From NCBI RefSeq assembly GCF_024502345.1, contig NZ_JALDNN010000001.1: a stretch of 64,000 nucleotides of DNA. One strand, written 5' to 3'. The position numbers were made by a program, and so were the translations under genes. The stretch comes from Escherichia coli. GTDB lineage: Bacteria; Pseudomonadota; Gammaproteobacteria; Enterobacterales; Enterobacteriaceae. This document shows, in pieces, positions 2,853 to 39,753 of this stretch (position 1 is the first letter of the stretch; each line of letters opens with the position of its first letter). A model generated the notes under the pieces. That model searched no databases. It was not told where the DNA came from and saw only the letters and a program-made list of their open reading frames with translations.

Positions 2853-4037
2853 TTAATTTGCGGCTTCCTGACGATGAAAACCTCGCCACCAGACCAGTAA
2901 GTTAACCAGGGCAATCGTCGCGCCAGCCAGACAAACGCCAGCCCAACCGCCATGTTGCCAGGCTGAGGCTGAAATTAGCGAACCGGCGGCACCGCCAATA
3001 AAGTAGCTGGTCATGTAACCTGCGGTCAGGCGATTACGCGCATCAGGATGTATTCGATAAATTACCGTCTGGTTAGTGATATGCACGCCCTGTACGGTGA
3101 GGTCCAGCACCAGAATGCCGATAATCAACGCCAGTACGGAAGTGTGACCAAACCAGATTGCCAGCCATGAAAGTAACAGCAGAAGCAGACCGAATGTTGT
3201 GGTGTGGTGCGATTTGCCCTTGTCGGCAAAACCGCCCGCCGGACGAGCGCCCAACGCTCCGGCAGCTCCCGCAAGTCCAAACAGACCAATTACGCCATCG
3301 CTGTAGTTAAAAGGTGGAGCGGCAAGCAAAAAGGCCATCGAGGTCCAGAGAATGCTGAAGTTGGCAAAAGTCAGGCAGCCCAGCAATGCGCGGGTGCGCA
3401 GGATCTTATCGTTGATAAACATGCTGAAAACGGAACCCAACAACTGTGGGTAGTTGAGGTGGGTTTCTGATTTCATTTGTGGCAGACCACGCCATAATGC
3501 TAGCGCCATCAGAGCCATTAACACCGAGGCAACCCAAAAGACGGTGCGCCAGCCGCCGAGGTTTGCCAGTAACCCGGCAACGGTTCGTGCCAGCAATATC
3601 CCCAACAGCAGACCGCTCATAATGGTGCCAACCACTTTGCCGCATTTATCCGGTGAAGCCAGCGTCGCTGCCAGCGGAACCAGAATTTGTGCCACGACTG
3701 AGAATAAACCGGTTAATGCCGTACCGAGGATCATCATCGCCAGTGACTGACTGCTGGCAGTGATTAACATACCGCCCGCTGCCAGTAAGGTCATCGAGAC
3801 AATCAGGCGGCGGCGTTCAAACATATCACCGAGGGGAACAAGAAACAGTAGACCTGCGGCATAGCCCAACTGCGCGGCGGTAACAATAAAGCCCGCCGAA
3901 CTGGCGGAGAGGGAAAAGTTACGCGCAATAGTGTCGAGCAGCGGTTGGGCGTAATAGTTGCTGGCGACCGCCAGACCGGTGGCGATCGACATCAGCACGA
4001 TCAGCGCCGGGCTAAGCTCATGAGTGGGTTTAGTCAT
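2853..4037 (-). CDS. ygaY: MFS transporter, apparently intact
   Basis: 394 aa ORF with multiple hydrophobic segments; position between proX and ygaZ matches ygaY. Confidence 0.8.
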   Translation of the reverse strand: MTKPTHELSPALIVLMSIATGLAVASNYYAQPLLDTIARNFSLSASSAGFIVTAAQLGYAAGLLFLVPLGDMFERRRLIVSMTLLAAGGMLITASSQSLAMMILGTALTGLFSVVAQILVPLAATLASPDKCGKVVGTIMSGLLLGILLARTVAGLLANLGGWRTVFWVASVLMALMALALWRGLPQMKSETHLNYPQLLGSVFSMFINDKILRTRALLGCLTFANFSILWTSMAFLLAAPPFNYSDGVIGLFGLAGAAGALGARPAGGFADKGKSHHTTTFGLLLLLLSWLAIWFGHTSVLALIIGILVLDLTVQGVHITNQTVIYRIHPDARNRLTAGYMTSYFIGGAAGSLISASAWQHGGWAGVCLAGATIALVNLLVWWRGFHRQEAAN

Positions 4038-31772: not shown

Positions 31773-31932
31773 CCCCTTTTATTTTTAACGTATTCTCCCC
31801 ACCAATCCATCAATTCAATTCGCTGCACGAGATAAGTAGAACGATTGTATGCTTTTCTAACTTCATTTTTATCACTGTGGGCTAAGGCAGACTCGATAAC
31901 ATCAGGATTTAATCCAGCTTCATTCATGGCTG
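31769..31932 (-). pseudogene. Tyrosine integrase, 3' remnant (~50 codons), truncated by IS903
   Basis: Reverse strand translates ...AMNEAGLNPDVIESALAHSDKNEVRKAYNRSTYLVQRIELMDWWGEYVKNKRG*; abuts IS903 end at 31933. Confidence 0.55.
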
Positions 31933-32673
31933 GGCTTTGTTGAATAAATCGAACTTTTGCTGAGTTGAAGGATCAGATCACGTATCTTCCCGACAACGCA
32001 GACCGTTCCGTGGCAAAGCAAAAGTTCAAAATCACCAACTGGCCCACCTACAATAAAGCCCTCATCAACCGTGGCTCCATAACTTTCTGGCTGGATGATG
32101 AAGCTATTCAGGCCTGGTATGAGTCAGCAACACCTTCTTCACGAGGCAGACCTCAGCGCTATTCTGACCTTGCCATCACGACTGTGCTGGTCATTAAACG
32201 CGTATTCAGGCTGACCCTGCGCGCTGCGCAGGGCTTTATTGATTCCATTTTTTCTCTGATGAACGTTCCGCTACGCTGCCCGGATTACAGCTGTGTCAGC
32301 AGGCGGGCAAAGTCGGTTAATGTCAGTTTCAAAACGCCCACCCGGGGTGAAATCGCACACCTGGTAATTGATTCCACCGGGCTGAAGGTCTTCGGTGAAG
32401 GCGAGTGGAAAGTCAAAAAGCATGGCCAGGAACGCCGCCGTATCTGGCGTAAGCTGCATCTCGCCGTTGACAGTAAAACACATGAAATCATCTGCGCTGA
32501 CCTGTCGCTGAACAACGTTACGGACTCAGAGGCCTTCCCCGGGTTAATCCGGCAAACCCACCGGAAAATCAGGTCAGCCGCCGCCGATGGCGCTTACGAT
32601 ACCCGGCTATGTCACGATGAACTGCGGCGTAAGAAAATCAGCGCGCTTATCCCTCCCCGAAAAGGTGCGGGTT
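31933..32673 (+). mobile_element. IS903-family element, truncated second copy (~741 bp), inverted relative to copy 1
   Basis: Starts with GGCTTTGTTGAATAAATCGAACTTTTGCTGAG; identical to copy 1 up to ...AAAGGTGCGGGTT, then diverges into the yfjP-like fragment. Confidence 0.9.
31965..32673 (+). pseudogene. IS903-family transposase, C-terminally truncated
   Basis: First ~236 codons identical to the copy-1 transposase; track ORF continues in unrelated out-of-frame sequence. Confidence 0.8.
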
Positions 32674-33094
32674 GCATCACACCGTTCCAGAACTGCTCGT
32701 CCACCGACAGCGCACGGTCATCAGCTTTGATGACCCACAGCACCAGGTCAAGCTCTGGCAGCATACGCCGGTACAGGGCGCGGTATTCATGGTCCCGTTG
32801 TCCGTTCTCTCCCACGCCCGGTAAATCAACAATCACCAGACTGTGACGACCACTGCGCAGCCGGAAGCGCAGTATGTCGCGGGTGCAGGCGTTCACATCA
32901 CTGACGGCGGAGACTTCCCCCCGAAAGAGTTCGTTACAGAGCGACGACTTACCGGCACCACTCTTGCCCATGATGCCAATCACCGGCTCGTAGTGGGTCA
33001 GATTCTGAATACGTTCAAGAATAAGCTGGCGAAGCGTATCGGGAAGCGACGCCAGCGGTTTTTCCAGGGCCTGAAGGCCATCAGTTTTATTCAT
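32674..33094 (-). pseudogene. yfjP: YfjP/YkfA/YeeP-family GTPase, N-terminal fragment
   Basis: MNKTDGLQALEKPLASLPDTLRQLILERIQNLTHYEPVIGIMGKSGAGKSSLCNELF... (P-loop GKSGAGKS); cut short at the IS903 junction. Confidence 0.75.
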
Positions 33095-33726
33095 ACAGGG
33101 TTCTCAGCGTGAAAAACAAAAATCCCCGCGCTCCGGTCAGGGAGGCGGGGGATTCACGGAGATAATATCTATCTGAATTTATTTAGAATATAAGCAGGCT
33201 CATGTAACTGTAGCAGTGTCAACTTTACATCACAGCTCATGTTGGCTGGTGGTATTTTGCCAATAGTAGACATTTACGCCTAGGTTTAGATATCGAAATT
33301 AGTACACCAATATAGATACAGCAAAGAGGGAACTGATTTGTCTGCGCGAGACTAGAACCGTTGCCCCCTGTGGTTCGATGGATTGCAGGAAAATCATTTC
33401 CGGTGCTGAAGAGAGCCTCCGATACAACCTGAGAATATTTTAAGAACATCAAAATGAATGACGTAATTTACTCAAAGGCGATTGCCTAATATGTCATGAT
33501 ATTAGTAGCATTTAATTGCGTGAAAGTTTGTATATTCTTTTGAATTTATCTCAAAGCTAAAACCTCGTCAAAAATACACAAAAGGGTTTTGAGAAACAAG
33601 AGCCTGATGCTGAATCTGCTACAGAGCTGGGTTCTGTTCTGTTAAACTTGCGGTTAAAAATTTCCAAGAAAACCTAGGATATGACATGAGTTCACTGCAC
33701 ACCAGTAGTAGCAGCAGGGCGGTCAC

Positions 33727-36540
33727 ATGCCAATGGAGAGCTGTACGCAAATGAACGCCGTAGAAATTGAACAAGCCATCACGGATCTTGCAGAGCAACC
33801 CTTTGATCCTATAGAGTTTCCTTATGCTTTTCTTGAAGCCTTTGGTAACAAGGAAACGACTGTCAAACGCTTGCGCGCCGGTGCATCAAACAAATCCGAC
33901 TTGGGCGGTGTTCTCCAGAGCAATAATATTCACATTCTGACCTGCGAAGCAGGGACTGTGACTCAGATGTTGGCCGCGCTCAAGGCTAGCCCTGCGACAA
34001 CTAAAGCCAAGGCGAAGTTCATCCTGGCTACAGATGGCAAAGATTTCGAAGCTGAAGACCTCGTTAGCGGTCAGACTGTCGCTTGCGCCTTTAAAGACTT
34101 CCCAGATCACTTCGGCTTTTTCTTGCCATTAGCAGGCATTAGCACAGTTCGTCAGATTTGTGAGAACTCCTTTGACATTCGGGCCACTAGCCGGCTGAAT
34201 CGTCTGTATGTCGAGTTGTTGAAAGATAACCCTACCTGGGGGACGGCGGAGCGACGTCATGACATGAACAAATTCATGACTCGGCTGATCTTTTGTTTTT
34301 TCGCTGAGGATACTGACATTTTCGTGGGTAAGGGACGCTTTACTGAAACCGTTGCGCAGATGAGTACAAGAGATTCGTCGAATACGCATGAAGTTATCGC
34401 TACCTTGTTTCGTGCCATGAACACCAGTAACAAAGATAGAGCCGCCGCTGGCATCCCGCGCTGGGCCAATGAGTTTCCTTATGTCAACGGACGCTTGTTC
34501 TCTGGGAGTAATGATGTACCACTGTTCAGTAAGATTGCACGGTCTTATTTGCTCCATGTGGGTAGCCTTGACTGGACCAAGATTAATCCGGATATCTTTG
34601 GCTCGATGATTCAGGCAATTGCCGAAGACGAAGAACGCGGAGAGCTGGGGATGCATTACACCAGCGTACCCAACATCTTAAAAGTTTTGAATCCACTATT
34701 TCTGGACGACCTGCGCGCAAAGCTGGATGAGGCGGGTGACAATCCGCGTATGTTGCTTAACCTGCGTAAGCGCATTTCCCACATCCGTGTGTTCGACCCA
34801 GCGTGCGGTTCTGGTAACTTTTTGGTTATCGCGTACAAGGAAATGCGTGCCATTGAGGCCGAAATCAACAAGCGGCGTAATGAGCCAGATCGCGCCTCGG
34901 ATATCCCACTTACCAACTTTCGCGGGATTGAACTAAGAGATTTCCCGGCAGAGATCGCCCGCCTTGCGCTTGTTATCGCTGAGTACCAATGTGATGTACT
35001 GTACCGTGGGCTGCGGTTGGCCTTGGCTGAGCTTCTTCCGTTACGCAACGAAAATTGGATTACCTGTGGCAATGCACTACGGCTCGACTGGTTAAGAATT
35101 TGCCCGCCGACAGGAACAGGTGTGAAATTACATGGCGATGACTTGTTTGGATCTCCGCTTGATCAGGCAGAGATCGACTTTGAGAATGAAGGCGGAGAGA
35201 CATACATTTGCGGTAACCCACCATACCTTGGTTCAAAGTGGCAGACGGATGAACATAAAGCTGATCTTGGCACAATCTTTTCTGGTCGCGTGAAAAATTG
35301 GAAATCGCTCGATTATGTTGCTGGCTGGTTCCTGAAAGCCGCTGACTATGGTAGCCAGACAAGTTCCCAGGCTGCTTTTGTTGCCACTAATTCAATCAGC
35401 CAAGGGCAGCAAGTGTCGATTCTGTGGCCGGAAATATTCAAGGCAGGACAAGAGATTAGTTTCGCTTACACGAGCTTTAAGTGGTCGAACCTCGCTACTC
35501 ACAACGCCGGGGTCACAGTTGTTATCATCGGAATTTCTAACTGTGTAGGAAAGTCGCGACGCCTCTTTTCGGCTGGAGGAGACAATGGTGCGACGACGTG
35601 TCGTGAGGTGGAGCGCATCAACGCCTATTTGATCGCTGGCCCTAACATCATTGTGGAGGGGGACAGTTGTCCAGCCGACAGTCTTGCAACGATGCAGTTC
35701 GGTAACCACCCGTACTATGGTGCATCACTGATCTTTTCGAGATCTGAAGCACAGCAGATGATGTCTGTCGATCCGCGTACGGCGCGTTTTATTCGCCCAC
35801 TATATGGCTCCCAAGAGTTCATTTCCGCTGTGCCACGAGCCTGTCTATGGATTAACGACGATGAGGCTGACGAAGCGGGGACGATTCCTCTGATAGCTGA
35901 GCGTATGAGCGCCGTAGCAAGTGCTAGACGTGCAAAAAAACAAGACAAGGCAGCCCAGAAACTGGCTAAGACTCCATATCGCTTTCGCGACCAGCAGACA
36001 TCTACGAATCATATTCTTGTGGTTCCTCGAGTCAGTTCAGAGAACCGTCCTTGCTTGCCGGTTGGATTACTTGACTCTGACTCTATCGTTCAAGATCAAG
36101 CATTCGCCCTTTACGACGCTCCTCTCTGGAACCTCGCCATCATAGCGAGTCGCCTGCATCTAGTTTGGATCGCCACGGTTTGTGGAAAGTTAGAGACACG
36201 CTACCGCTATTCAAACACCCTCGGCTGGAATACTTTCCCGCTCCCAACACTCACTGAGAAAAATAAGGCAGACCTCACGCGCTGTGCAGAGGATATTCTT
36301 CTGACTAGGGAGCATCACTTCCCTGCAACCATTGCAGACCTTTATGACCCCGAGAAGATGCCAGACGACCTGCGTATTGTGCACGAGCGTAATGACGAAG
36401 TGCTTGAGCGTATTTACATTGGGCGCCGCTTTAAGAATGACACAGAGCGGCTTGAGAAGCTGTTTGACCTTTATACTAAGATGGCCGCTTCAACTGCATC
36501 GGGCAAAAGCAATAAACGTAAAGTGGGAACCAATGCATGA
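33727..36540 (+). CDS. MmeI/PglX-like gamma-class N6-adenine DNA methyltransferase, 937 aa; no recognisable N-terminal PD-ExK motif
   Basis: Motif X-like HYTS, motif I VFDPACGSGNFLV, motif IV ICGNPPYLG; other blocks (RLIFCFFAEDTDIF, FPYVNGRLF, AFVATNSISQGQQVSILWP, LETRYRYSNTLGWNTFP) resemble the MmeI/PglX family from memory. Start could be Met-9 (33751). Confidence 0.85.
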   Translation: MPMESCTQMNAVEIEQAITDLAEQPFDPIEFPYAFLEAFGNKETTVKRLRAGASNKSDLGGVLQSNNIHILTCEAGTVTQMLAALKASPATTKAKAKFILATDGKDFEAEDLVSGQTVACAFKDFPDHFGFFLPLAGISTVRQICENSFDIRATSRLNRLYVELLKDNPTWGTAERRHDMNKFMTRLIFCFFAEDTDIFVGKGRFTETVAQMSTRDSSNTHEVIATLFRAMNTSNKDRAAAGIPRWANEFPYVNGRLFSGSNDVPLFSKIARSYLLHVGSLDWTKINPDIFGSMIQAIAEDEERGELGMHYTSVPNILKVLNPLFLDDLRAKLDEAGDNPRMLLNLRKRISHIRVFDPACGSGNFLVIAYKEMRAIEAEINKRRNEPDRASDIPLTNFRGIELRDFPAEIARLALVIAEYQCDVLYRGLRLALAELLPLRNENWITCGNALRLDWLRICPPTGTGVKLHGDDLFGSPLDQAEIDFENEGGETYICGNPPYLGSKWQTDEHKADLGTIFSGRVKNWKSLDYVAGWFLKAADYGSQTSSQAAFVATNSISQGQQVSILWPEIFKAGQEISFAYTSFKWSNLATHNAGVTVVIIGISNCVGKSRRLFSAGGDNGATTCREVERINAYLIAGPNIIVEGDSCPADSLATMQFGNHPYYGASLIFSRSEAQQMMSVDPRTARFIRPLYGSQEFISAVPRACLWINDDEADEAGTIPLIAERMSAVASARRAKKQDKAAQKLAKTPYRFRDQQTSTNHILVVPRVSSENRPCLPVGLLDSDSIVQDQAFALYDAPLWNLAIIASRLHLVWIATVCGKLETRYRYSNTLGWNTFPLPTLTEKNKADLTRCAEDILLTREHHFPATIADLYDPEKMPDDLRIVHERNDEVLERIYIGRRFKNDTERLEKLFDLYTKMAASTASGKSNKRKVGTNA

Positions 36541-38582
36541 GCAACAAGATTAGATCTGTACCGTCAGTTTCTGTTACCTACTCACGCAACGGAGCATCGA
36601 CCAAGGCTAATTCTCTTGGGATGCGTCCTATGCAAGAAAGGGCTTATGAGAAGCGCGGAGAACAATATCTTCTCATAAAGTCGCCGCCCGCCTCTGGCAA
36701 GAGTCGTGCGCTGATGTTCGTCGCACTCGATAAACTCGCAAACCAGGGGATCAAACAGGCAATCATTGTCGTGCCGGAAAAATCTATCGGCGCGAGCTTC
36801 AACGATGAACCGCTATCGCAGTTTGGATTCTGGGCTGATTGGCATGTTGAACCTAAGTGGAATCTGTGCAACGCCCCCGGTAACGACAACGGCGGCAAGG
36901 TAAAATCTTTCGGCTCTTTTCTTGAAAGTAGCGACAAGGTGCTTGTTTGTACACACGCAACCTTTCGCTTCGCGGTCGATGCCTACGGTGTAGAGGCGTT
37001 TGACGATCGCCTGATCGCCGTCGATGAATTTCACCATGTGTCCGCTAACCCGGATAACAAGCTTGGTCAGCATCTGGGACAGTTCATTGAGCGTGACAAG
37101 ACGCACATCGTGGCCATGACCGGCTCCTACTTCCGGGGAGATGCGGAAGCCGTTTTGGCTCCTCAGGATGAGTCTAGGTTCGATACCGTCACCTACACCT
37201 ACTACGAACAACTCAACGGTTACGAATACCTCAAACAGCTTGATATCGGATACTTCTTTTATAGTGGATCATACATTGATGACATCCTCAATGTCCTCGA
37301 TCCTGACAAGAAAACGATTATCCATATTCCCAACGTCAATTCGCGCGAGAGTACGAAGGATAAAATTAAGGAGGTGGAGCACATTCTGAGCGAGCTTGGC
37401 GATTGGCAAGGTGCGGATCCTACGACTGGTTTTCAGCTAGTCAAGCGCCCCGATGGCCATGTGTTGCGTATTGCTGACCTGGTGGACCCAGCCAGTCAAG
37501 GCAAGATTCAGGAAAGCCTCCGAGCTCCAGAAATGAAGACAGACCGTGACTATGTAGACATCATTATTGCACTTGGTATGGCGAAGGAAGGTTTCGACTG
37601 GATCTGGTGCGAACATGCGCTGACTGTTGGCTACCGTGCCAGCCTGACTGAGATCGTGCAGATTATCGGTCGCGCTACTCGCGACGCGCCGGGTAAAACC
37701 CGCGCGAGATTTACTAACTTGATCGCCGAGCCCGACGCTGTAGAGGGCGCAGTAACTGAGGCAGTCAACGATACCTTGAAAGCTATCGCGGCGAGCCTGT
37801 TGATGGAACAGGTACTGGCTCCGCGCTTCGAGTTCAAGCCCAAGAATCCTGAAATCGGTCCGACTCCAGGCTTTGATTATGGTGATGGAGGATATGACCC
37901 GGATAGCTGCAATTTTGGTGTTAATGAGCAGACAGGGACGTATCAAATCGAGATTAAGGGACTTGCCGAGCCTAGGAGCAAAGAGGCGGCACGTATCTGC
38001 CAGGAAGATTTAAACGAAGTGATCGCGGCCTTTGTGCAGGATAAGCCCGCCATCGAACGAGGCCTGTTCGATGAAGAGCTGATCCCTGAAGAGTTAACAC
38101 AGGTTCGTATGGGTAAGATCATCAAAGAAAAGTATCCTGAACTTGATGCTGAAGATCAGGAGGCTGTACGTCAGCATGCTATCGCCGCCCTTAACCTCAC
38201 GCAGCAGGCCAAGCGTCTTGCTACCGGTGAAAACGATGGGACGCTCAATACTGCTCTTATTGACGGAGTGCGTCGCTTTGCAATGGATGTGCGCGATTTA
38301 GACATAGACCTTATCGACCGCATCAATCCCTTTGGTGAAGCCTACGCTATCCTTGCTAAGACGATGAGTGAAGACAGTTTGAAGCAGGTCGCGGCGGCCA
38401 TCTCGGCCAAGCGTACTTCGATCACGCCTGAAGATGCCAAGGTGATCGCCAAGCGTGCCGCTGAATTCAAACGTGAACGTGGGCGCCTCCCATCGTTAAC
38501 TTCGCTGGATGCTTGGGAAAAACACCTTGCTGAAGGTGCAGCCGCGTTTATGCGTTTTAGGGCGGAGGGACGTTATGAGTAA
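36537..38582 (+). CDS. SF2 DExH-box helicase (ResIII-like), 681 aa, with ~270 aa C-terminal region of unknown function
   Basis: Motif I PPASGKS, motif II AVDEFHHV, motif III MTGS, motif VI QIIGRATRD; ATG overlaps the methyltransferase stop (ATGA). Confidence 0.85.
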   Translation: MSNKIRSVPSVSVTYSRNGASTKANSLGMRPMQERAYEKRGEQYLLIKSPPASGKSRALMFVALDKLANQGIKQAIIVVPEKSIGASFNDEPLSQFGFWADWHVEPKWNLCNAPGNDNGGKVKSFGSFLESSDKVLVCTHATFRFAVDAYGVEAFDDRLIAVDEFHHVSANPDNKLGQHLGQFIERDKTHIVAMTGSYFRGDAEAVLAPQDESRFDTVTYTYYEQLNGYEYLKQLDIGYFFYSGSYIDDILNVLDPDKKTIIHIPNVNSRESTKDKIKEVEHILSELGDWQGADPTTGFQLVKRPDGHVLRIADLVDPASQGKIQESLRAPEMKTDRDYVDIIIALGMAKEGFDWIWCEHALTVGYRASLTEIVQIIGRATRDAPGKTRARFTNLIAEPDAVEGAVTEAVNDTLKAIAASLLMEQVLAPRFEFKPKNPEIGPTPGFDYGDGGYDPDSCNFGVNEQTGTYQIEIKGLAEPRSKEAARICQEDLNEVIAAFVQDKPAIERGLFDEELIPEELTQVRMGKIIKEKYPELDAEDQEAVRQHAIAALNLTQQAKRLATGENDGTLNTALIDGVRRFAMDVRDLDIDLIDRINPFGEAYAILAKTMSEDSLKQVAAAISAKRTSITPEDAKVIAKRAAEFKRERGRLPSLTSLDAWEKHLAEGAAAFMRFRAEGRYE

Positions 38583-39753
38583 TTCTGATTTAGACGATTT
38601 GGCGGCAGAACTTGCTGAATTTGCACCACCGGAGAAGAAAAAAGGACGTCCAGCCAGCGAGGAACGCATCATCGCAGGTTTTGAGGAAATCCAGCGCTTC
38701 GCTGACCAACATGGACGTGCGCCGCAACACGGCGAAGAGCGTGAGATCTTTGAGCGCCTCTATGCAGTGCGGCTCGACCGGCTACGCAGTCTCCCAGACT
38801 GCCGTGCCTTGCTAGAGCCGCTGGATCATCAAGGCTTATTGGCTGGAGGGGGTGATGTAGCGGAGTCAGCGGACGAAATTATCGATATCGATAATTTGGC
38901 TGCCGAACTGACGGATGTTTCCAGCGAGGATGATATCACAGTCTTGCGTCATGTTCGTGCTAGCGCCGAAAAGCGTGCTGTACAAGGGATCGCGGATCGC
39001 AAGCCGTGCGAGGATTTTGATACATTCAAACCGCTATTTGAACAGGTGCGCAGTGATCTAAGTTCAGGGTTAAGAGTGACCCGACCTTTTGGACAGTATG
39101 CAACGATTGAAGTGGGCCATTGGTTCATCCTGGATGGTCAAACGGCTTATGTGGCTGAGGAAGGTGAAGAGTTCGATTCTCCACAGGGGAAGAAAGATGC
39201 TCGGCTGCGTGTCATTTATTCGAATGGTACAGAAAGTAACCTGCTTCGGCTGTCATTAGTTCGTGCTTTGTATAAAGACGAAACAGCACGTCGAATTACC
39301 GATCCAGACATGGGGCCTTTATTCAGCGATGCTCTAGAAGAGAGCGATCTAGAAAGTGGCACCATTTATGTATTGCGTTCGCTATCAGATAACCCTTATG
39401 TGGCCGAACATCGTGATGTTATTCACAAGATTGGTGTGACTGGCGGCAAGGTCGAGACTCGTATTGCTAATGCTGAACACGATTCCACCTATCTGTTGGC
39501 GAAGGTAGAGGTGGTCGCTTCATACAAACTCGCAGGTATCAACCGCACCCGGATGGAAAACCTGTTTCACAGGTTGTTTGCACCCGCAAGGCTTAACATT
39601 ACCATTAACGACCGTTTCGGCCATCCAGTACAGCCCGAGGAATGGTTTCTCGTTCCGTTATTCGTTATCGATGAGGCTGTTGCACGTATTAAGGATGGTA
39701 GCATCATTGGGTATGTTTATGACCCCATGTCTGCGAAACTGGTGAAGGCATAG
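38575..39753 (+). CDS. GIY-YIG-like / T5orf172-like domain protein, ~392 aa (tentative domain call)
   Basis: GGAGG RBS then ATG at 38575 overlapping helicase stop (ATGAGTAA); C-terminal region GTIYVLRS...YVAEHRDVIHKIGVTGGKVETRIAN resembles GIY...YIG-R; acidic N-terminus. Confidence 0.65.
   Translation: MSNSDLDDLAAELAEFAPPEKKKGRPASEERIIAGFEEIQRFADQHGRAPQHGEEREIFERLYAVRLDRLRSLPDCRALLEPLDHQGLLAGGGDVAESADEIIDIDNLAAELTDVSSEDDITVLRHVRASAEKRAVQGIADRKPCEDFDTFKPLFEQVRSDLSSGLRVTRPFGQYATIEVGHWFILDGQTAYVAEEGEEFDSPQGKKDARLRVIYSNGTESNLLRLSLVRALYKDETARRITDPDMGPLFSDALEESDLESGTIYVLRSLSDNPYVAEHRDVIHKIGVTGGKVETRIANAEHDSTYLLAKVEVVASYKLAGINRTRMENLFHRLFAPARLNITINDRFGHPVQPEEWFLVPLFVIDEAVARIKDGSIIGYVYDPMSAKLVKA

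Follow-up and report, generated by a model that had tools for sequence, protein, structure and literature searches.

The non-coding gap considered here occupies positions 33095-33750 (656 bp) of a 64,000-nucleotide stretch of an Escherichia coli genome (contig NZ_JALDNN010000001.1; hereafter the window). It lies between a minus-strand fragment of a yfjP/ykfA-family GTPase gene, whose ATG is at 33094, and a plus-strand gene encoding an MmeI-family DNA methyltransferase; the two genes diverge. The best explanation of the gap, which as a whole is given a probability of about 0.6, is that it is a spacer pieced together where the conserved backbone of a CP4-57-like genomic island meets the island's variable cargo. 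The GC-rich hairpin at its left end is part of a widely conserved, unannotated module of predicted promoter and terminator placed before the GTPase gene on the opposite strand. A preliminary description of this DNA had assigned the gap, as 630 bp at 33095-33726, to the methyltransferase operon as its leader. That extent has to be corrected, because the methyltransferase starts at 33751 and not at 33727, and the notion of a single methyltransferase leader gives way to that of a mosaic spacer between diverging genes.

Mosaic origin of the spacer

The patchwork nature of the gap follows the distribution of its parts. As a 632-bp query, the whole gap is present in only two of 5,426 complete E. coli genomes, and query positions 1-218 and 344-632 match different sets of these genomes. 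The left 200-250 bp travel together with the GTPase gene, and the right 325 bp with the methyltransferase. The GTPase-linked homology extends from 32670 to 33290-33340, with 96-99% identity to the DNA beside GTPase genes in islands L002-L005 (compared loci are given as L numbers). Within it, the sequence upstream of the GTPase promoter (33189-33340) is common only to closely related islands, and cross-genus conservation is absent. The right-hand part begins with a diverged AT-rich distal allele upstream of the methyltransferase operon (33425-33654, plus strand, 34% GC), which is 71-79% identical to another allele found in approximately 200 E. coli genomes and in Klebsiella plasmids. It is followed by a proximal block (33655-33750, plus strand) that is near-invariant between alleles, lies directly upstream of the methyltransferase start, and is 99-100% identical to L003 from 33655 on.

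What fills the space between these two parts? The junction segment (33291/33341 to 33424) is lineage-specific and single-copy, being confined to the same two genomes. At the corresponding site most relatives have insertion-sequence DNA, either an IS66 remnant, with its left end (GTAAGCG...) at position 4051 of L003, or IS5. The segment itself lacks the flanking inverted repeats of an insertion sequence or miniature element. The middle stretch of approximately 85-134 bp is lineage-specific filler at an insertion-sequence hotspot. Junction debris, which the preliminary description had offered as an alternative, fits this middle stretch but not the left GTPase leader, which is conserved across genera.

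The gap is AT-rich and without a convincing open reading frame (ORF), as had been stated. Its GC content is 0.41 over 33095-33726 against 0.49 for the window, and falls to 0.34 over 33425-33654, so that it is the right half that is AT-rich. The longest ORF in any frame has 71 aa and a TTG start on the minus strand, and the remaining ORFs that lie wholly inside the gap have at most 42 aa. A Pfam search with the 71-aa ORF and with a 59-aa ORF that overlaps the methyltransferase start gave no match, and the PGAP annotation of two E. coli genomes carrying the sequence at 99.8-100% identity has no feature in the gap.

The conserved leader of the GTPase gene

Read on the minus strand, the left 90-100 nt (33092-33188) make up a self-contained leader of the GTPase gene, with the order TTCTAA-15-TATTAT, approximately 10 nt, hairpin, TTTTGTTTTT, CACGCTGAGA, 7 nt, ATG. 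The predicted -35 hexamer TTCTAA (33183-33188; family consensus TTCCAA) is separated by a 15-bp spacer from the predicted -10 hexamer TATTAT (33162-33167). A 25-bp palindrome, TTCA-N3-AGATA-T-TATCT-N3-TGAA (33153-33177), is centred on the -10 and is a candidate operator. The hairpin (33122-33153), which can be read as an intrinsic terminator or attenuator stem, is directly followed by an 11-nt T-run (TTTTGTTTTTC on the minus strand, 33111-33121). The GTPase ATG lies 17-18 nt past the T-run, and its ribosome-binding site GAGA (33102-33105) precedes it by 7 nt.

This arrangement recurs far beyond E. coli. Relatives of the GTPase (proteins 65-90% identical to the query) were collected at 36 loci from species-representative Enterobacterales genomes, and 35 of these loci have the same layout of approximately 92 nt before the GTPase ATG, with the consensus aTTCCAAATAATTTCAGAyAGATATTATCTCnGTGAATC, hairpin, TTTTTGTTTTT, CACGCTGAGA, 8 nt, ATG. 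It spans Escherichia, Salmonella, Klebsiella, Citrobacter, Enterobacter, Yersinia, Serratia, Photorhabdus, Erwinia, Hafnia, and Arsenophonus. In the 35 leaders GATATyAT at the -10 is invariant, and CTGAG at the ribosome-binding site is nearly so. In a set of 33 distinct leaders, the frequency of the commonest base rises from approximately 0.3-0.5 to at least 0.9 exactly at the -35, where conservation begins, and from genus to genus the 92 nt are better conserved than the GTPase protein itself (65-90% identity). A covariance model built from eight of the leaders (R1) matches the whole leader of the window (33092-33183, minus strand) at 118.3 bits (E = 2e-20); it finds a single match in each of 42 sources, every one at a GTPase start. 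The hairpin, first taken for a possible methyltransferase regulator, belongs to the opposite transcription unit: in 40 other loci it has a fixed place before GTPase genes, whatever DNA lies upstream.

The promoter prediction is consistent with published data. In genomic SELEX, the sigma-70 holoenzyme bound the K-12 ykfA and yfjPQ spacers in vitro; the study classes both as 'constitutive promoters' and predicts TTGAAA-15-TATCAT for them (PMC3946193). This is the same motif as TTCTAA-15-TATTAT in the window, which has both hexamers, a spacer within the 15-19 bp range, and retention in relatives, as befits a sigma-70 promoter.

Is the palindrome a binding site? It has one exact match in the window, where 0.03 would be expected, and an exact and always single match in 29 of 50 loci, in 27 of which it lies just upstream of the GTPase start (L043 and L044 were unchecked). 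Most likely it serves as the operator for a dimeric DNA-binding protein. In eight of ten diverse loci tested, the gene that follows the GTPase encodes a WYL/HTH regulator, a candidate for the protein that binds the palindrome. No copy of the palindrome was found upstream of the WYL gene itself. In loci L008-L039 the WYL/HTH gene (approximately 230 aa) lies at about 3089-3790, after a gap of approximately 170-260 bp, mostly about 215 bp, behind the GTPase gene.

The K-12 paralogues yfjP (L006, 7610-7713) and ykfA (L050, 2459-2560, minus strand) have the same layout of promoter, hairpin, T-run, and ribosome-binding site. Their hairpin lies 22-25 nt after the -10, and its stems are unrelated to those of the main family. 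Of their palindrome, the outer TTCA...TGAA arms are kept at the same spacing and the inner half-site is degenerate. A further relative, yeeP of CP4-44, is a 5'-truncated pseudogene without the leader.

Structure and selection of the hairpin

The hairpin that had been noticed at about 33120-33155 is real and lies at 33122-33153 (ATCCCCGCGCTCCGGTCAGGGAGGCGGGGGAT). Its folding energy is -21.4 kcal/mol (z = -3.8), and none of 200 shuffles folds as well. In sliding-window folding of both strands of the gap, excess folding on either strand is confined to the hairpin region: no structure was found outside 33075-33199, and 33200-33750 is without excess. There is therefore no riboswitch-like methyltransferase leader. 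The covariance-model scan that had been proposed as a check found no known family either: against Rfam 15, the region 32000-35000 gave only chance-level matches with E up to 10 and none at the gathering threshold, the best overlapping one being NsiR1 (16.4 bits where the threshold is 39, E = 7.1).

In each of the 37 distinct leaders, a hairpin of -9.6 to -21.4 kcal/mol is followed by 10 nt of which 7-9 are T, and this tract ends 15-20 nt before the ATG. The stem itself changes while the structure is kept. At least five different stem sequences occur: CTCC/GGAG, TTCC/GGAA, ATCC/GGAT, and CCCCCGAAGCC/GGCTCGGGGG (5' arm/3' arm) in the main family, and GGCAGAACC/GGTTCTGCC in K-12. In a model-based alignment, standard pairs fill 91.3% of cells compared with 78.9% in shuffles, a value reached by none of 500, but this alignment was fitted to the model's own structure, which favours pairing and counts against the figure. 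Changes on both sides of a pair are seen in eight of ten pairs (30 cells), and the observed covariation score is reached by none of 500 shuffles. When the 3' partners are shifted by 1-3 columns, only 29-61% are paired. Comparison of the leaders thus makes a clear case that the hairpin structure is under selection.

The T-run gives the element a direction. It is found only on the GTPase-sense (minus) strand; on the plus strand an A-run precedes the hairpin, and there is no T-run behind it. A GC-rich stem of 9-12 bp directly adjoined by 7-9 U is the canonical form of an intrinsic terminator, and GC-rich stem-loop, adjoining U-rich tract, and compensatory change are all present here. An outer helix, CTCnGTGAA/TTCACnCTGAG, that would hide the ribosome-binding site was considered and rejected: its arms are 86.8% complementary compared with 85.8% in shuffles, it has no covariation support, and transcription from the predicted start would miss most of its 5' arm. 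The helix probably arises as a side effect of the DNA palindrome.

The methyltransferase side

The start of the methyltransferase at 33751 agrees with PGAP, which uses the corresponding ATG, and with Pfam, where MmeI_N aligns from residue 1. Moreover, the N-terminus MNAVEIEQAI is kept, with nothing before it, in L045 and L046, whose upstream DNA is unrelated.

The short ORF overlapping the operon start, previously counted as 21 codons, exists and does overlap the start; it has 22 codons (33686-33754, plus strand; MSSLHTSSSSRAVTCQWRAVRK) and an AGGA ribosome-binding site of its own, 6 nt ahead of the ATG. The TGA of this upstream ORF (uORF) overlaps the methyltransferase ATG as ATGA (33751-33754). 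Such a uORF is expected by chance with a probability of approximately 0.06, or approximately 0.005 if the ribosome-binding site is required, according to shuffles in a test chosen after seeing the data. The overlap suggests that the uORF may hand ribosomes to the methyltransferase start. In this it resembles known ATGA-coupled short uORFs, with an AGGA site of its own, a stop over the methyltransferase ATG, and an operon that continues with overlaps; it differs from them in that the peptide is conserved in near-identical leaders only, the Met-Asn start of the methyltransferase dictates the TGA, and translation here is putative. The uORF was also considered as a conserved peptide and this was rejected, there being no conservation of frame or peptide in diverged relatives.

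Where is the methyltransferase promoter? The preliminary description had suggested that the gap could carry the operon promoter and regulatory elements. The promoter must indeed be in the right-hand part, but the hairpin serves the GTPase side. By consensus, the promoter is not identifiable from the sequence, and no structured RNA was identified for the methyltransferase. A looser scan gave at best 8-of-12 matches, none of them common to both alleles. Minus-strand consensus promoters at 33571-33543 and 33524-33496 were discarded, as their hexamers differ in the L003 allele.

The end of the gap nearest the gene is unusually constant. In comparison with L003, L004, and L043, identity is 95-99% in the bin 33655-33769 and 93-100% in the next one, and drops to about 75% in the flanks and the coding sequence. 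The region 33655-33885, made up of 96 bp at the end of the leader and approximately 135 bp at the beginning of the gene, is 93-100% identical between alleles that otherwise share 50-80%. It could be a functional, constrained 5' region or a recombination anchor for allele swapping. A possible origin of the AT-rich leader by duplication and decay of the methyltransferase 5' end (repeat D1) was dropped: tblastn gives E = 0.25-0.5, and the likeness is lost in the other allele.

A proposed mechanism and its analogues

How might the GTPase leader work? RNA polymerase is predicted to start near 33154-33155 on the minus strand. A strong terminator, formed by the hairpin and the 11-nt T-run, would begin approximately 10 nt after the start and be complete within approximately 45 nt, before the ribosome-binding site. 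Most transcripts would then end at the T-run. If most end before the ribosome-binding site, expression of the operon would depend on read-through. The palindrome would add a second control as a repressor site, or might serve as a loading site. Too little leader precedes the stem for a competing fold to form, so the closest analogies are found in antitermination loaded at the promoter. The leader may be an unrecognised regulated switch, with either a promoter-loaded antiterminator or a repressor combined with an attenuator, that gates the island backbone operon. The genes gated would be those for the GTPase, DUF932, the WYL regulator, anti-restriction, RadC, and CbtA/CbeA, in a very common enterobacterial island family. 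This proposal, gated operon included, is a tentative one and is put at well below even odds.

The kinds of element invoked are familiar. Like known 5'-leader attenuators, the leader has a stem of 9-12 bp, a loop of 4-7 nt, and an adjoining U-tract between promoter and ribosome-binding site. It differs in showing neither a competing anti-terminator fold nor a visible leader peptide, in having approximately 10 nt before the stem, and in that termination is predicted. A second comparison is with antiterminators. Pseudomonas aeruginosa has an AlpA that is presumably unrelated to the AlpA of E. coli CP4-57. The lambda pR'-tR'/Q and P. aeruginosa PalpB-tB/AlpA systems have in common with the leader a promoter that binds polymerase unaided and an embedded element resembling a protein site (PMC7969949, PMC9371919). 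They also share an intrinsic terminator before the first gene of a mobile-element operon. In the window, by contrast, the palindrome lies over the -10, whereas those systems have a site between -35 and -10, so that position and symmetry both differ; no -10-like pause signal is apparent by eye in the first transcribed bases; and the terminator is approximately 10 nt from the start, compared with 54 nt for tB. P. aeruginosa AlpA has been described as 21Q-like in fold (PMC7969949, PMC9371919). An extension to E. coli AlpA as antiterminator was rejected, the 21Q-like fold being that of the P. aeruginosa protein, and analogy alone was retained. No Q-like or AlpA-like protein was identified for the leader, and the neighbouring WYL/HTH protein is no known antiterminator.

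WYL-domain repressors of the BrxR and CapW type control mobile-element and defence operons. The island resembles these systems in having a WYL/HTH gene within the same operon region and an inverted repeat that overlaps its promoter. It differs from them in that binding here is only predicted and that the palindrome lacks a counterpart before the WYL gene; the ChIP-exo result given below is a further difference.

Several observations weigh against the explanation preferred here. The leader is too short for an alternative anti-terminator fold and gives no visible route for regulating read-through. At 15 bp the promoter spacer is short, and the hexamers are predictions. The wobble count, with 14 G-U and 13 A-C cells, picks no strand. 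In the tables of 3' ends and start sites searched from a K-12 Term-seq study there is no entry at the yfjP or ykfA leaders, although silent genes would also give none. ChIP-exo saw no DNA binding by K-12 YfjR (PMC8464067). On the methyltransferase side, no conserved plus-strand sigma-70 promoter was found in the gap, either with a consensus tool or in the looser scan. The uORF peptide is conserved only in near-identical leaders of the E. coli/Klebsiella type; L045 has no such ORF and L046 an unrelated 27-codon one. Finally, all uORF substitutions are non-synonymous, and an in-frame indel sits in a triplet repeat.

Alternative explanations

Two alternatives concern the gap as a whole. That all 630 bp form the 5' leader of the methyltransferase operon, with the hairpin as one of its regulators, agrees with the position of the gap upstream of the operon, with the need for a promoter in its right-hand part, and with the invariance of the last 96 bp. 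But the hairpin goes with GTPase genes whatever the upstream DNA; the operons in L003, L004, L051, and L052 either are parted from it by insertion sequences or, in L051, are without it altogether; the plus strand has an A-run before the hairpin and no T-run after it; and the upstream DNA of L045 and L046 is unrelated. By these comparisons the proposal is already largely refuted, and it is given hardly any credence. Alternatively, the gap might be pure junction debris whose only function is a methyltransferase promoter somewhere within it. The lineage-specific middle of 85-134 bp, with insertion sequences at this place in relatives, speaks for this, as do the lack of excess structure in 33200-33750 and the truncation of the GTPase, through which the leader now serves nothing. 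Debris does not account for 92 nt that are conserved across genera and a stem with compensatory change, even though this copy is orphaned, and as an account of the whole gap it is unlikely.

The remaining alternatives accept the conserved leader and give it another role. Could hairpin and T-run be an unregulated insulator against read-in from the cargo into the island backbone? The element lies exactly at the boundary between backbone and cargo, and in K-12 the upstream genes rnlB and perR have the same direction as yfjP and ykfA. Against this, the conserved promoter is upstream of the terminator, so that the leader's own transcripts meet it too; the 28 nt from the T-run to the ATG leave no space for a second promoter; and in the window, as in L001-L005, nothing reads in, since the upstream gene is directed away. 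An insulator is thus possible but doubtful, and it is not mutually exclusive with an attenuator. A protective 5' stem-loop against mRNA decay, with the U-tract as an enhancer that binds ribosomal protein S1 and with termination incidental, would suit a hairpin approximately 10 nt from the predicted 5' end and a U-tract 15-20 nt before the ATG, beside the ribosome-binding site. This seems improbable for a GC stem of 9-12 bp followed by 7-9 U, the design of a canonical intrinsic terminator. It is less probable still that promoter and terminator make up a gene for a small RNA of 40-55 nt. Such genes do have a terminator immediately after the promoter, but only approximately 7-10 unpaired nt precede the stem in the main family, the stem sequence turns over completely between lineages and so holds no conserved seed, and neither an Rfam match nor a K-12 3' end in the tables searched was found.

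Spread and significance of the leader

The leader has 8,907 matches in 4,175 of the 5,426 complete E. coli genomes (77%), K-12 included. Among those listed, the matches are without annotation or are annotated only as 'hypothetical protein', and no account of the module was found in the papers searched. As an intrinsic terminator or attenuator beside a promoter, with a candidate operator, the leader would be of a known kind. It is among the most repeated unannotated non-coding elements in E. coli and fronts a barely studied gene family. As first written, the finding matters little, since it describes an ordinary mosaic spacer at an insertion-sequence hotspot and gives its striking feature to the wrong gene. 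A widespread, conserved leader of island GTPase operons is modestly interesting, and easily tested in K-12 at yfjP and ykfA. If it is a true switch, it would explain how islands of the CP4-57, CP4-6, and CP4-44 type keep their backbone genes quiet. Annotation gains from the methyltransferase start at 33751 and from recognition of the operon as one of the DnmA/YeeB/YeeC type.

Neighbouring genes and other observations

The methyltransferase gene (33751-36540, plus strand), which is DnmA-like, has the Pfam domains MmeI_N, MmeI_hel, MmeI_Mtase, MmeI_TRD, and MmeI_C; it matches the PADLOC model REase_MTase_IIG (E = 9e-284) and PDB entry 5hr4 (MmeI; E = 4e-138). In the PDB comparison, its residues 1-87 are unaligned to the MmeI nuclease region. 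A YeeB-like DEAD/ResIII helicase gene (36537-38582, plus strand), whose start overlaps the methyltransferase stop, and a gene for a YeeC-like protein of the GIY-YIG/T5orf172 nuclease family (38575-39753, plus strand) complete a three-gene operon with overlapping stops and starts (33751-39753). The operon has the same order of MmeI-like methyltransferase, SF2 helicase, and T5orf172 protein as DnmA-YeeB-YeeC (PMC9973331). The likeness concerns the operon and not the gap, and no regulatory leader is described in that study (PMC9973331). Of the three genes, PADLOC assigns a name to the methyltransferase alone (Type IIG); it lacks models for the helicase and GIY-YIG/T5orf172 genes.

The same methyltransferase-helicase operon is found on large conjugative Klebsiella plasmids. 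In the Klebsiella pneumoniae plasmid pVA684-388 (L051, 3354-3630), just 129 bp separate the methyltransferase start from an IS5 upstream of it. In one further Klebsiella plasmid with the operon (L051/L052 comparison), the GTPase and WYL backbone genes are also present.

Two pairs of short imperfect inverted repeats lie approximately 400 bp apart in the gap, at 33195-33221 and 33596-33624, with their arms crossed. As long-range inverted repeats (I2 and I4) they were taken as chance, on account of the short arms and crossed order.

On the other side of the gap, the yfjP fragment of the preliminary description is confirmed as a 5' fragment of approximately 141 of 291 codons (32670-33094, minus strand; ATG 33094-33092), with Pfam matches to MMR_HSR1 and Dynamin_N. 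It is 100% identical to L001, where the gene is full-length (876 bp). Homology to full-length genes ends at 32670, where a partial IS903B of the IS5 family begins (31905-32673; 98-99% identity to annotated IS903B transposase genes) and truncates the GTPase gene. In the window the GTPase leader is an orphaned relic, because IS903B removed the rest of the operon. A plus-strand ORF of 293 aa (31965-32846) runs from IS903B into the antisense strand of the GTPase fragment and, since it spans both, is not a real gene as listed. Beyond IS903B, the segment 29916-31932 shares 99.9% identity with one that carries the annotation 'hypothetical protein | integrase domain-containing protein' in numerous E. 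coli genomes; its GC content is low (0.27-0.40), and a different mobile element therefore adjoins the IS903B copy.

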